Positions 5,964 through 18,181 of a stretch of 64,000 nt of DNA are shown here, piece by piece (within the stretch, counting starts at the first letter, position 1; each line of letters begins with the position of its first letter). The stretch lies in assembly GCA_964549615.1 (NCBI GenBank), contig CAZJVP010000051.1, forward strand, positions 32,001 to 96,000, in the 5' to 3' direction. The notes below the pieces were generated by a model that ran no database searches, had not been told where the DNA came from, and saw only the letters and a program-made list of their open reading frames with translations. The stretch is from an uncultured Thermococci archaeon. Its GTDB lineage: Archaea; CAYQAE01; CAYVLA01. The position numbers and the translations under genes are program-made.

Positions 5964-6060
5964 CACGAGAGCGGTCCCAGACGTTTCTGCGTCCGCTACA
6001 AAGTAGGAGGGCGGAAACGGTGCAGACACGGCTCCCTGCACGGTTGATGAAGAAGGGACG

Positions 6061-6157
6061 TGGGCCCGCGGGGAATTGAACCCCGGACCTTTGCCTGGTG
6101 GTACGACCACCATCCGGTTATCAGCCGAACGCTCTAACCAAGCTGAGCCACGGGCCC
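6061..6157 (-). tRNA. tRNA-Ile(GAU) with 22-nt non-canonical insertion (~6093..6114) at the 3' side of the anticodon stem
   Basis: GGGCCCG/CGGGCCC acceptor stem, GCTC/GAGC D-stem, TTCGG-CTGATAA-CCG, T-arm CGGGG-TTCAATT-CCCCG. The insertion contains a perfect TGGTGGT/ACCACCA hairpin. Confidence 0.9.
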
Positions 6158-6897: not shown

Positions 6898-7027
6898 GGG
6901 CCGATAGCTCAGCCTGGCAGAGCACCGCCTTTGGGAAGGCAGGTTTGCTTCTCGGCGAGCGCAAGGCGGGGGCCGCGGGACAGGCACGATGTCTCGGCCT
7001 GCGCGAATTCAACTCCCGCTCGGTCCA
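6898..7027 (+). tRNA. tRNA-Ala(CGC) with two introns (33/34: 6932..6959; 53/54: 6980..7007)
   Basis: Acceptor stem GGGCCGA/TCGGTCC has the G3-U70 Ala identity pair. Both introns have perfect 4-bp central helices (CGCC/GGCG; CGCG/CGCG) with 3-nt bulges. The spliced product is a 74-nt cloverleaf. Confidence 0.9.
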
Positions 7028-12563: not shown

Positions 12564-13580
12564 ATGAGCATGTGTACGAAACTGCCCTTTGGCAAGGTTG
12601 ACCCGGAGTGCCTGACCAGGTACGTCTTCGACCGGTTGCCGCCTCCCTCGGAGAGGGTCGTCGTTGGCCCGTCCGTGGGCGAGGATGCGGCGATCATAGA
12701 TATGGGCGGGCTGGAGGGGACCTACATGGTGGTCTCGTCGGACCCGATTTCCGGCGCGGAGAGTGAGATCGGGCGATACGCGGTCCACGTCAACGCAAAC
12801 GACGTCGCCACCGCTGGGGCAAGGCCGTCCCTGTTTGCGACAAACCTGATGATGTCTAGGTCGGCGACGCCCAGAGATCTTAAGGTCCTGTTCGGCCAGA
12901 TCTGTGAGGAATGCGCGGCACTGGGGATATCGATAGTTGGAGGCCACACCGAGGTATCGCCGATCGATAGGACCATAGTCTCCTCGACGATGATCGGGTT
13001 CGTCGCGCGGGATGCACTGGCTCGCAGGCCCATCGAACCCGGGGACGTGCTGATCCTAACCAAGGGGGCGGGGATAGAGGGCACCTCGATAGTGGCGTCG
13101 AAGAGGGGGGAGGAGCTCGCCCGTCTTCTCGGACGCGGTTTGATCAGGCGCGCCCGGGCCTTCTCACGCAAGATCAGCGTGGTGCCCGAGGCGATGATCG
13201 CGGCTGAAGAACGGGTCAAGAGGATGCACGACCCGACCGAAGGAGGGGTTCTCGGCGGCCTATTGGAGATGTGCGTGGCGAGCCGAATCTCGGCTCGCGT
13301 TGATCCCGCAAGGATTCCGATCGCCCCGGAAACGAAGGCAATTTGCGAACGCCTTGGCATCGACCCGCTGAAGCTGATAGGCTCCGGCAGCCTGCTCTGC
13401 ATTTTCTCGTCCCAGGCGGCGCGGAGGGTGCAACGAAGGTTCAGCAAAGCCGGGATTCCTTCAGCGCGGATAGGGATAGTGGAGAAGGTAGGCAAACCCA
13501 AGCTCGTGCTGATCGCTGAGTCTGGCGAGGAGGAGCTGAAGCAGTTCCCGCCCGACGAGCTCTGGGGCGCTATACTGTAG
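12564..13580 (+). CDS. AIR synthase-related (PurM/HypE/ThiL fold) protein
   Basis: GEDAA, SSDP, NANDVA, GGHTE, MHDPTEGG. Confidence 0.88.
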   Translation: MSMCTKLPFGKVDPECLTRYVFDRLPPPSERVVVGPSVGEDAAIIDMGGLEGTYMVVSSDPISGAESEIGRYAVHVNANDVATAGARPSLFATNLMMSRSATPRDLKVLFGQICEECAALGISIVGGHTEVSPIDRTIVSSTMIGFVARDALARRPIEPGDVLILTKGAGIEGTSIVASKRGEELARLLGRGLIRRARAFSRKISVVPEAMIAAEERVKRMHDPTEGGVLGGLLEMCVASRISARVDPARIPIAPETKAICERLGIDPLKLIGSGSLLCIFSSQAARRVQRRFSKAGIPSARIGIVEKVGKPKLVLIAESGEEELKQFPPDELWGAIL

Positions 13581-14976
13581 GCTGCACGCGTGCGCCCGGG
13601 CCCCTTAGCTTGCCCTTGGCGGCGTCGTCGGCAACGGCCAAAGCTTTCTCGTAGAGCTTCTTATCAATGAATCCCTGGCTGACCAGGTCTATCAGGCTGG
13701 TCTCGTCGATGATCTCCGTCTTTCCTGAAGGCCTGATCACGACGTCTATCTCCAGGTCGATGTAGCGAACCTTTCCGGGATAGAACTCAACGGGGGTGTT
13801 TATGTTGATGAGTCTGCCCTTCAGGAGGTCCGCGGCCGAGTAGTAGGAGTTCACATAGTACCATTCGCCCCGTACCATCTCGGTGATCGCGTAATCGCCC
13901 TCCTCGATGTCCACGTTCAAGCCGTCATATCTTCCGCTGCCCACCATCTTCCTCCTCAGTACCAGCCGGTCTTCTCCCAGTTCCTGGACGAGGCCTTTGA
14001 GGTGGATGGTCTGGCCATCGGCCTTGACATGCTCCACCGTGTAGAAGTACGTGTCCAGCCTGCTGAAGATGGCCTCCTTCAGCGCCTTGTTTGCCTCATC
14101 CCTGCCAACCTTCTCCATCAACTTCTCAGCCACGTCGACCGCCACAGAGTACGTCTCGCCCATGGACTTTATCGCGTGGTGGTTCTCCACCGTGGGAGCA
14201 ACGGAGGATCTAAGCTCATCCAGCTTGCGCCTCGCCTCGCCACCGAACTCAAAGGAGATGAACTCCTCTCCGGAATAGAGCGGGTTGGACAGGGACATCT
14301 CGACCTCGTCGGCGGCCCTTCTGAGGTTGTCGACGTCCTGGGCAAGTTGCTGCGGATCAGCTCCTTCAGCTGCAGTTCTCCAGAGCAGGCCCCACCCTTC
14401 AGGCTTCAGCTGCTTGCCCAGGGCGATGAGCTCGTCTCGCTTCGGCCCCTTGATCTTCTTGCTTACCTTCACCCCGTCGTCCGAGAGCAAGACCGCGTAC
14501 TTGCCCGGAAGGTTTATCTTCATGTCCAGGACGGGCTTCTTCCCGCCCATGGGGATGGATCTGATCTGCACCTTGATGTCCTCGTCCTCCTTGATGACGC
14601 GCGTTGTGTTGGAGAACGGTAGGTAGCCGACCTCGTCGTCGATATCGACGAAGGCAGCTTTCAGCCTGCTGTCAACCTTCTGCACAGTGCCAAGGTAGAC
14701 CGCGTTGAGATTGATCTTGGAGTCGCGCTTCACGATGTCGAGGAAGCTTTCGATCAGCGCGTCCTTGACCGCCGAGACCGCCTCCAGTTCCCCGGATACC
14801 ACTATGCCGCTTCCGTCCTCGGTGCTGTTTATCTCAGCCCCCGCCGGGGAGAGGTCCCGGTCCGATTCGAATTTCTGGGCCAGCTCCTCGGAGGCCTGGC
14901 TGAGCGTGAAGCCCTTCTCAAGGAACAGCTTGGAGAGTGCGGTCGAGTATATGCCCCTTATTCGCACGGACGTCAA
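13570..14976 (-). CDS. RNA-binding protein/ribonuclease FAU-1
   Basis: VRIRGIYSTALS start, RNase E/G-like S1 region, WRTAA, HHxIK, and DUF402 C-terminus (NINTPVE, YIDLEIDV). Confidence 0.9.
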   Translation of the reverse strand: MTSVRIRGIYSTALSKLFLEKGFTLSQASEELAQKFESDRDLSPAGAEINSTEDGSGIVVSGELEAVSAVKDALIESFLDIVKRDSKINLNAVYLGTVQKVDSRLKAAFVDIDDEVGYLPFSNTTRVIKEDEDIKVQIRSIPMGGKKPVLDMKINLPGKYAVLLSDDGVKVSKKIKGPKRDELIALGKQLKPEGWGLLWRTAAEGADPQQLAQDVDNLRRAADEVEMSLSNPLYSGEEFISFEFGGEARRKLDELRSSVAPTVENHHAIKSMGETYSVAVDVAEKLMEKVGRDEANKALKEAIFSRLDTYFYTVEHVKADGQTIHLKGLVQELGEDRLVLRRKMVGSGRYDGLNVDIEEGDYAITEMVRGEWYYVNSYYSAADLLKGRLININTPVEFYPGKVRYIDLEIDVVIRPSGKTEIIDETSLIDLVSQGFIDKKLYEKALAVADDAAKGKLRGPGARVQPTV

Positions 14977-14992
14977 TGTTCCACCACCGGTG

Positions 14993-15118
14993 TGGGGGGG
15001 CCGGGATTCTCAGAGAAAACCTTGGTTTTCGTCTTTTGAACCCGAGTCGCCGGCTCCCATTCGGCGATTCTAAGCCGGAAGGGTGTCCAAGTTATGGACC
15101 AGACTACCCTACCCCCCC
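14993..15118 (-). tRNA. tRNA-Pro(UGG) with three introns (D-arm ~22/23: 15083..15093; 33/34: 15060..15071; 59/60: 15007..15034)
   Basis: Removing 11, 12 and 28 nt at BHB-type junctions (GTCC/GGAC, CGGC/GCCG, TTCA/TGAG) gives the 75-nt GGGGGGGTAGGGTAGTCTGGTCCATCCTTCCGGCTTTGGGAGCCGGCGACTCGGGTTCAAATCCCGGCCCCCCCA. Confidence 0.92.
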
Positions 15119-15151
15119 GGGTCTCTTTGTGGTCCGGCTTGGAGCCGGCTG

Positions 15152-15161
15152 GTATAAAAAT
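15152..15161 (-). promoter_or_regulatory. TATA box of tRNA-Pro (possibly also driving FAU-1)
   Basis: Minus-strand TTTTTATAC about 35 nt upstream of the tRNA 5' end. Confidence 0.6.
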
Positions 15162-15397
15162 TCTATCATGGGCAGGCCTTCAGGGCGGATTTCACCTTCC
15201 TTGGTCGATGCTGCCCTGCTGAGCATGCCTTCGCGAAGGACATGCCATCTCATAGCCGTCAGGTTGGGCACCAACGACCTGGCTGGGCATTTGTGGGGCT
15301 CGCGCGTGGCCTCTTGAGATCGCGGAAGCGGAGGAGCGATTTATCAACGCTCGGTCGGCCTAATCGACAGTTCCTCACATTCATCTTCGGTGATGCC

Positions 15398-15790
15398 GTG
15401 GCCATCTACCAGGGTAAGTCCGGAAGGAAGAGCACGGGCGGAAGGTACAAGCCCCACCACAAGAAGCGTCGGTTCGAGCTGGGCAGGTTCCCGGCTGAGA
15501 CGCGGATAGGGGAAAGGAAGCTGCGGATCATAAGGACCAGGGGGGGCAACATCAAGCAGAGGCTGATGGCCTCACAGTTCGCCAACCTCGTGGAATCCCC
15601 GGGCCAGAAGGCGAGGCTGGTCAAGATCCTCACCGTGAAGGACAATCCCGCCAGCCGGGATTTCACAAGGAGGAACATCATCACGAAGGGAGCCATAATC
15701 GAGACGGAGGCCGGGCTGGCCCGCGTGACGTCCCGGCCCGGGCAGGACGGCGTGGTGAACGCCGTCAAGGTTGAAGCGAAAAACGCCTAG
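15398..15790 (+). CDS. rps8e: 30S ribosomal protein S8e
   Basis: [46 protein letters not shown]; GTG start after a GGTGA ribosome-binding site. Confidence 0.97.
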
Positions 15791-18050: not shown

Positions 18051-18143
18051 GCCGAGGTAGCTCAGAGGGAGAGCGCCGGACTGAAGGCCTTCGAACAGGG
18101 GTCCGACATCCGGGTGTCGCGAGTTCGATTCTCGCCCTCGGCA
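18051..18143 (+). tRNA. tRNA-Phe(GAA) with canonical 37/38 intron (18087..18107, 21 nt)
   Basis: GCCGAGG/CCTCGGC acceptor stem, CCGGA-CTGAAG[intron]A-TCCGG, T-arm GCGAG-TTCGATT-CTCGC. Confidence 0.93.
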
Positions 18144-18181
18144 CTCTTTCTTCAGAGCTCTGCCAGGCCTCCGGTCCGAAA

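Follow-up and report, generated by a model that had tools for sequence, protein, structure and literature searches.

Does the apparently intergenic sequence at positions 14,993 to 15,118 of the 64-kb window analysed here (64,000 nucleotides; contig CAZJVP010000051.1, positions 32,001 to 96,000, of assembly GCA_964549615.1 from an uncultured archaeon) encode a tRNA, and if so, of which identity and with how many introns? A preliminary description of the window had proposed that removal of 11, 12 and 28 nt from this stretch leaves a tRNA-Pro(UGG) of 75 nt. We examined the proposal by comparison with paralogous and orthologous genes, by analysis of the splicing motifs, and by searches for further UGG isoacceptors and for the splicing enzymes. 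We conclude, with a probability of roughly 0.9, that the locus is a functional tRNA-Pro(UGG) gene, the sole UGG isoacceptor gene found in the genome, and that it is interrupted by three introns. The source assembly (G000) consists of 104 contigs totalling 3.2 Mb, is 99.5% complete as judged by marker genes and belongs to a lineage labelled Candidatus Hadarchaeota, a phylum of 5 species in the taxonomy used; genomes of the family concerned measure 2.4-4 Mb. Three relatives from the same family (G001-G003) and one class-level relative (G004) were used for comparison. Coordinates refer to the window unless a contig (C) or locus (L) is given, and gene positions are numbered from the tRNA 5' end. 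Published work is cited from the available portions of the papers, and statements that rest on it extend to those portions.

The gene lies on the minus strand (Table 1), which the preliminary description had not stated, although its coordinates were exact. The mature 5' end is at 15118, the discriminator A is at 14993, and the acceptor stem is, as had been noticed, composed entirely of G7 (15118-15112) paired with C7 (15000-14994). Excision of the three inserts yields the 75-nt product that had been proposed, now supported by paralogues and orthologues as well as by its own sequence: all 14 of the canonical bases checked are present (U8, A14, G18, G19, A21, U33, G37, G53, U54, U55, C56, A58, C61 and A73). 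In its minimum free energy (MFE) structure the spliced product takes a cloverleaf-like form with four arms, and it is recognised as Pro(tgg) by ARAGORN. G37, A73 and the anticodon are identity elements for prolyl-tRNA synthetase, and the product combines an NGG anticodon (UGG) with both G37 and A73, which places it in the proline class. The tRNA position numbers given for the introns (22/23, 33/34 and 59/60) follow our own numbering.

Table 1. Coordinates of the tRNA-Pro(UGG) gene, its parts, and other features discussed in the text.
Feature	Position	Strand	Details
tRNA-Pro(UGG) gene	14993-15118	-	126-nt precursor body, 75 nt after excision; CCA not encoded
Exon 1	15094-15118	-	gene 1-25; G7 acceptor 5' strand, U8, A9, D-stem 5' strand, D-loop, U22
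Intron 1	15083-15093	-	11 nt; gene 26-36; tRNA 22/23 (D-arm)
Exon 2	15072-15082	-	gene 37-47; D-stem 3' strand, position 26, anticodon-stem 5' strand, U32, U33
Intron 2	15060-15071	-	12 nt; gene 48-59; tRNA 33/34 (anticodon loop)
Exon 3	15035-15059	-	gene 60-84; anticodon UGG, G37, A38, anticodon-stem 3' strand, 4-nt variable region, T-stem 5' strand, T-loop 54-59
Intron 3	15007-15034	-	28 nt; gene 85-112; tRNA 59/60 (T-loop)
Exon 4	14993-15006	-	gene 113-126; U60, T-stem 3' strand, C7 acceptor 3' strand, discriminator A73
Putative BRE/TATA promoter	15151-15165	-	TTTTTATA at 15160-15153, -42 to -35 from mature 5' end
tRNA-Pro(GGG)	C67:3-94 (locus L074)	-	at contig end; one 17-nt intron at 32/33
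tRNA-Pro(CGG)	C88:77580-77691 (locus L075:81-192)	-	inserts of 15 nt at 22/23 and 22 nt at 59/60
Three-unit EndA	C90:41466-42674 (L041:1195-2406)	-	403 aa; ARMAN-2-like, epsilon-type
Two-unit EndA	C88, L040:1456-2637	-	393 aa; fused, crenarchaeal specificity loop
DUF402 + RNase E/G open reading frame	13570-14976	-	TTG start as listed
Ribosomal protein S8e	15242-15790	+	
tRNA-Lys(CUU)	C30:7222-7337	-	116 nt; two noncanonical inserts
tRNA-Ala(CGC)	6898-7027 (C51:38898-39027)	+	two 28-nt introns, at 33/34 and 53/54
Apparent tRNA-Gly(GCC)	C76:22638-22746	-	17-nt intron at 59/60
Multi-insert tRNA-like gene	C43:6548-6718	-	171 nt
Apparent tRNA-Gln(CUG)	C75:12828-12961	-	
Class II tRNA	C88:26922-27062	-	
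tRNA-Ile(GAU)	6060-6157	-	98 nt
tRNA-Leu(AAG)	18051-18144	+	94 nt

Archaeal introns are typically recognised in a motif known as the bulge-helix-bulge (BHB), in which a 4-bp helix carries a 3-nt bulge 3' of each strand and is cut after the second bulge nucleotide. We derived the BHB register from the canonical 37/38 case and enumerated all compatible excisions within the 126 nt; there were 142, so the geometry by itself is weak evidence. When combinations of these excisions were submitted to ARAGORN, 92 of 7140 gave a tRNA, and the same procedure applied to two real tRNA control loci returned 62 and 176 matches with many different anticodons. ARAGORN is therefore permissive, and its acceptance is no evidence for particular boundaries, which we fixed from paralogue and orthologue comparisons that are independent of the splicing motif. 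The frequency of 4-bp helices in BHB register might be taken to mean that the locus is intergenic DNA resembling a tRNA by chance. This explanation is effectively refuted, and we give it a negligible probability, since not one of 60 dinucleotide shuffles yielded an ARAGORN tRNA with any BHB-compatible excisions (mean 3838 combinations each), the locus is conserved in 8 distinct sequences, and paralogues match it over the junctions. The fold of the precursor was also more stable than those of all 200 shuffles (z=-3.4), and in its MFE structure the hairpin of intron 1 and the inner stem of intron 3 are both formed.

Two further proline tRNA genes in the same genome define the junctions. Pro(GGG) was found by a BLAST search of the assembly with the in-silico spliced product; ARAGORN -i labels it Arg(ccg), and a BHB-consistent excision leaves the anticodon GGG. 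This gene is uninterrupted over junctions 1 and 3 of Pro(UGG), and its D-arm is identical to that predicted from excising gene positions 26-36. Pro(CGG) is a hidden gene, missed by both Rfam and ARAGORN, which was newly uncovered by a sweep of the genome anchored on the T-arm and acceptor pairing; the sweep recovers 30 of the 35 Rfam matches and independently rediscovered the Pro(UGG) locus. Its inserts occupy two of the Pro(UGG) intron sites, its anticodon loop is uninterrupted, and it is continuous over junction 2 of Pro(UGG). When the three unspliced genes were aligned with MAFFT, the gap relative to Pro(CGG) was exactly the 12 nt of intron 2 and that relative to Pro(GGG) exactly the 28 nt of intron 3. 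Each junction is thus supported by at least one paralogue that lacks an intron there. After excision ARAGORN identifies the three genes as Pro(tgg), Pro(cgg) and Pro(ggg); spliced Pro(UGG) shares 64 of 76 positions with Pro(GGG) and 59 of 75 with Pro(CGG), the D-arm and variable region being common. A trio of isoacceptor genes with 1, 2 and 3 introns at partly shared sites constitutes a compact set for the study of intron spread among tRNA genes.

Orthologues provided a second source of evidence. The locus is present in all three other family genomes, with 85-88% identity, and a pattern scan revealed 5 further orthologues on metagenome contigs; together with the window gene these form an alignment of 9 sequences, 8 of them distinct, from which unrelated chance matches among the scanned stretches, 4 of the 7 from the genome collection and 7 of the 12 from metagenomes, had been dropped. 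All three inserts are found in all 9 aligned sequences. Only 4 of 75 exon columns vary (positions 16, 17, 49 and 50), compared with 25 of 54 intron columns (Fisher p=4.5e-8), and every indel falls inside an intron loop, with lengths of 11-13, 11-12 and 28-29 nt for introns 1, 2 and 3 respectively (intron 2 is 11 nt in G003 and intron 3 is 29 nt in L038; the loop parts of introns 1 and 2 vary). Exon 1 is invariant in the 8 distinct orthologues except at D-loop positions 16 and 17 and agrees with the Pro(GGG) paralogue, exons 2 and 4 are invariant among all orthologues, and exon 3 varies only at T-stem positions 49 and 50, where TC or CT is found, both still able to pair with G65 and G64, the pairs 49-65 and 50-64 alternating between C-G and U.G. 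Across three genera and the 5 metagenome contigs the exons are thus almost invariant, whereas the introns have diverged. Standard pairing is seen in 97.6% of alignment cells for the proposed pairs, compared with 41.6-70.5% if the partners are displaced by 1-3 columns, and there is one compensatory change, from A-U to G-C, in the inner helix of intron 3. Because the sequences are related, these conservation figures overstate their independence.

These comparisons also bear on the possibility that the gene has other boundaries or another identity, for example two larger excisions giving a Pro(GGG), or an 11-nt excision at gene positions 23-33. ARAGORN accepts many other combinations at this locus, including Pro(ggg), Val(aac) and Leu(tag), and alternative intron-1 boundaries give products whose free energies are similar or slightly better. 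However, under the alternatives the mature tRNA would include columns that vary and bear indels; excision at 23-33 would leave a C at a site that is T in both paralogues; of the 11-nt options, 26-36 alone forms a 4-bp Watson-Crick helix in register; and a genuine Pro(GGG) is already present on C67. We regard such alternatives as extremely improbable.

Intron 3 forms a strict hBHBh' motif, with a central helix TTCA/TGAG (3 Watson-Crick pairs and 1 GU), the 5-bp T-stem as outer helix and an 8-bp inner stem-loop from which a single C bulges. Introns 1 and 2 depart from the strict form and fit the relaxed bulge-helix-loop (BHL/hBH) class described in PMC5829648: in both, a 4-bp helix is capped by a loop of 7-8 nt, inside which the 5' cut site falls, and the 3' cut site lies 2 nt beyond the helix. 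In intron 1 the central helix is GTCC/GGAC, with 4 Watson-Crick pairs, the 5' site is inside a 7-nt terminal loop and the 3' site in a bulge, and the flanking helices are h=1 and h'=0. The central helix of intron 2, CGGC/GCCG, likewise has 4 Watson-Crick pairs and is made by the anticodon-stem 5' strand and the intron; its outer helix is 3 bp. The preliminary description had placed a helix with a 3-nt bulge at every junction, which holds fully for the 28-nt insert but only at the 3' site for the 11- and 12-nt inserts. It had also considered 11-12 nt to be near the minimum for an archaeal intron. Counting 1 + 4 + 2 invariable nt and a minimum loop of 3 nt, we infer a structural floor of ~10 nt for a BHB intron, by which 11 and 12 nt are essentially minimal; a published minimum was not found in the literature searched. 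The locus thus provides a well-supported example of 11-12-nt BHL introns near the structural minimum and would, if the lineage-wide reading considered below is true, be a natural system for the minimum archaeal intron length, 11 nt being one above the ~10-nt floor.

Since intron 1 has the weakest motif of the three, we considered whether only the 12- and 28-nt inserts are spliced and the 11-nt insert is retained in an enlarged D-arm. Inserts of the D-arm are indeed the class that annotators leave in 'mature' tRNAs (bioRxiv 10.64898/2026.10.13.758758). Retention, however, would break the D-stem, as the insert lies inside its 3' strand. Moreover, the 4-bp helix of intron 1 is invariant in the 8 distinct orthologues while 4 loop nucleotides are free and the length ranges over 11-13 nt; Pro(GGG), without the 11-nt insert, is identical across the junction; and in Pro(CGG) a different 15-nt sequence at 22/23 still pairs with the same GTCC. 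Endonucleases that bear a specificity loop have also cleaved both a D-loop BHB intron and a BHL substrate in vitro (PMC3241643). Retention of the insert is therefore improbable, and removal of all three introns remains the preferred reading.

If the gene were a decaying or silent pseudogene, its CCA and CCG codons would have to be read by another tRNA. We searched the source genome for a second Pro(UGG) gene, a check that the preliminary description had suggested, using ARAGORN -i, the 35 matches to the Rfam tRNA model, BLAST and the T-arm/acceptor sweep, and none was found in the assembly of 104 contigs. Pro(CGG) and Pro(GGG) are present and the Pro(UGG) locus is invisible to standard finders, as might be expected of a pseudogene, but under established wobble rules CCA is read by neither CGG nor GGG. 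In addition, the exons are near-invariant and the introns divergent, the canonical positions are intact, and upstream of the gene there is an A/T-rich element with TTTTTATA that is kept in 9 of 9 orthologues although the surrounding flanks have diverged. We consider a pseudogene very improbable. The conserved element fits an archaeal promoter, composed of a B recognition element (BRE) and TATA box, that would give a leader of ~10 nt.

Several observations weigh against the reading of the locus as a functional gene with three introns. The D-stem has just three standard pairs, with U13.U22 unpaired, although both paralogues have the same D-arm. The flanking helices of the two short introns are weak (h=1/h'=0 for intron 1; 1 GC and 2 GU pairs in the outer helix of intron 2), and the innermost pair of the intron-3 central helix, A-U in the source genome, is an A.G mismatch in 5 of the 8 distinct orthologues. 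The MFE structure of the precursor keeps the anticodon stem and not the intron-2 central helix, has a shifted register beside intron 3, and free energies give the chosen intron-1 boundary no advantage over alternatives. Covariation is thin, with 1 pair changed on both sides and the majority of pairs never varying, and the orthologues are related, L028 and L034 being nearly identical to the window. With the assembly split into 104 contigs, a further Pro(UGG) gene could lie in a gap. Finally, transcription, cleavage, ligation and the assignment of enzymes to particular introns are all inferred from sequence, a search of sequencing runs having listed no RNA run that contains the locus.

For the enzymes expected to remove these introns, we identified two EndA genes in the source genome, both of which are also present in G001-G003; G004 gave a single short EndA match. 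Residues 29-403 of the three-unit EndA align to residues 22-387 of the ARMAN-2 epsilon2 enzyme (4fz2_A, E=2e-73), with equivalents of the catalytic Y236, H251 and K282 and of K161 in the ARMAN-specific loop all kept (ARMAN-2 residue numbers from PMC3488258). It is thus a single chain of ~400 aa, alignable over three units and carrying both the triad and the loop lysine, as in the epsilon2 type. Among the relaxed motifs that the ARMAN-2 EndA cuts in vitro is a T-loop intron, and the bulge is contacted by the loop of that enzyme (PMC3488258, PMC12397907). The catalytic unit of the two-unit EndA aligns best with Aeropyrum pernix 3p1z_B (E=2e-43), in which loop residues K44 and R46 (PMC3241643) are matched by K-P-R. 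To judge from these similarities, the two EndAs look suited to relaxed motifs. RtcB is also encoded (E=1.8e-182). Among 201 sampled archaeal genomes, full-length three-unit homologues were found in the 4 of this family and in 11 others; these 11 come from the 196 that lie outside the phylum, and each measures 0.7-1.1 Mb. In the available portions of the literature searched, only DPANN Micrarchaeota relatives are described as having the three-unit type.

Taken together, the features of the locus and the enzyme set suggest the following maturation pathway. A precursor with a 126-nt body would probably be transcribed from the gene's own BRE/TATA promoter, and each intron would fold locally into a motif of the bulge-helix-bulge type. 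EndA would then cut after the second bulge nucleotide on both sides and RtcB would join the exons, while RNase P and 3' processing would trim the ends and CCA would be added. Since the three motifs do not overlap, lying at gene positions 19-38, 39-63 and 74-118 of the precursor, no order of removal appears to be forced.

Multi-intron tRNAs carrying three introns at most have long been known from the Thermoproteales and a few other lineages (PMC4033280, PMC3218864, PMC8450103), the triple-intron genes of Pyrobaculum and Thermofilum having been described by Sugahara et al. 2008 (via PMC4033280 and PMC8450103); the earlier statement that triple-intron tRNAs are reported mainly from this order agrees with PMC4033280 (2014) and PMC8450103 (2021) in their available portions. 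The gene adds to this known class, in a poorly sampled lineage. Like the Thermoproteales, this genome combines up to three BHB-type introns per gene at noncanonical sites, many interrupted tRNA genes and an endonuclease with a broad-specificity loop; it differs in belonging to another lineage and in its enzymes, which are a three-unit epsilon-type and a fused two-unit one where the Thermoproteales have distinct alpha and beta subunits. Disrupted tRNAs and a three-unit EndA homologous over its full length are shared with ARMAN-2 (Ca. Micrarchaeum; PMC3488258, PMC12397907), but here the genome is 3.2 Mb in size and encodes a second EndA, and enzyme activity is predicted from homology. Asgard lineages average more than 2 intervening sequences per gene, and their D-arm inserts are often missed by tRNAscan-SE (bioRxiv 10.64898/2026.10.13.758758). 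They resemble the present case in their multiple introns, software-missed D-arm inserts and BHB-compatible boundaries, and their inserts were defined by comparison with compact relatives, an approach we applied here with paralogues; they belong to another phylum, however, and their inserts have a median of 22-23 nt against the 11-12 nt found here. Increased tRNA gene disruption has been reported from Hadesarchaea by Kaneta et al. 2018 (PMC5829648), where in the archaeon YNP_N21 the trait is tied to an alpha4-type EndA with an L3 loop, in contrast to the three-unit and two-unit enzymes here. A eukaryotic nuclear tRNA gene that is interrupted by a single intron in each of these three arms, and served by a different endonuclease complex, is an analogy only. 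Our literature search found no paper on this gene or on a three-unit EndA in the lineage; the supplements of PMC5829648, which it did not cover, may list Hadesarchaea tRNAs.

Do these results extend to the lineage as a whole? Rfam recovers only 35 tRNAs from the source genome, 28 of which have spans of ≥83 nt; at least 6 more interrupted genes are hidden, and introns recur at 22/23 and 59/60 in different tRNAs. On this basis, we hold it to be an even question whether tRNA-gene fragmentation in this small and deep-branching lineage is comparable to that of the Thermoproteales or Asgard, with an unusual two-enzyme set. Triple-intron tRNAs are extended by this gene to a poorly sampled lineage and linked to a previously undescribed pair of candidate broad-specificity EndAs. 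Should the two EndAs both be active, with distinct preferences, they would represent a new independent case of co-evolution between endonuclease and tRNA genes.

With regard to annotation, ARAGORN reported no gene at the locus in either default or -i mode, the default run on the window returning two other tRNAs only. The Rfam tRNA model (RF00005) did not match the locus at the gathering threshold in the window, where it found just the same two tRNAs, or in the whole genome, nor in a 351-nt search even at E<=10, as is expected of the unspliced sequence given its three inserts. The suggestion that standard annotation misses the gene therefore stands for ARAGORN and Rfam/Infernal only; tRNAscan-SE 2.0 iteratively searches for 2-3 noncanonical introns (PMC8450103). 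Annotation by ARAGORN and Rfam would score this genome as lacking tRNA-Pro(UGG) and about one third of the tRNA set.

Downstream of the tRNA by 17 nt is an open reading frame with DUF402 and RNase E/G domains, whose N-terminal coding sequence is conserved beside the tRNA in the orthologous loci; the tRNA and this mRNA may accordingly share the upstream promoter. The gene for ribosomal protein S8e is divergent from the tRNA.

In the class-level relative G004 no Pro(UGG) orthologue was identifiable among the top 30 Rfam tRNA loci or in a weak BLAST match, L018, whose similarity is fortuitous and falls within AT-rich coding sequence; ARAGORN labels the best T-arm match Gly(GCC). The metagenome stretches L035:6624-6800 and L036:1082-1260 are tandem tRNA-like repeats from an unrelated AT-rich source and contain the exon-1 pattern by chance.

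A number of other candidates for proline tRNAs in the source genome were rejected. The 116-nt sequence on C30 that ARAGORN -i labels Pro(tgg) is Lys(CUU), having a GGGCCCG acceptor strand, G73 and an intact anticodon hairpin. Another ARAGORN -i Pro(tgg), with a supposed 37-nt intron in the window, is Ala(CGC), which has G3.U70 and whose two excisions have inner helices of 6 and 5 bp; it scored 34 bits with Rfam in the genome search and was unlisted in the window search at the gathering threshold. The ARAGORN 'Pro' at C54:39833-40578, with a supposed intron of 661 nt, is spurious, with no tRNA-like ends and no Rfam match. Short BLAST matches of the spliced product on C57, C41, C45, C15, C19, C18 and C14 are non-tRNA sequence, and the sweep candidates C20:36031-36247 and C30:73155-73287 are not tRNA-like. 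The mislabels produced by the ARAGORN intron search for Ala(CGC), Lys(CUU) and Pro(GGG) would distort inferences on codon usage and completeness for the lineage.

Four more interrupted tRNA-like genes missed by Rfam were noted elsewhere in the genome (on C76, C43, C75 and C88; loci L076-L078 among them), with anticodons assigned by eye. The two tRNAs that standard tools find in the window, Ile(GAU) and Leu(AAG), are longer than their compact forms and so are probably intron-bearing too.

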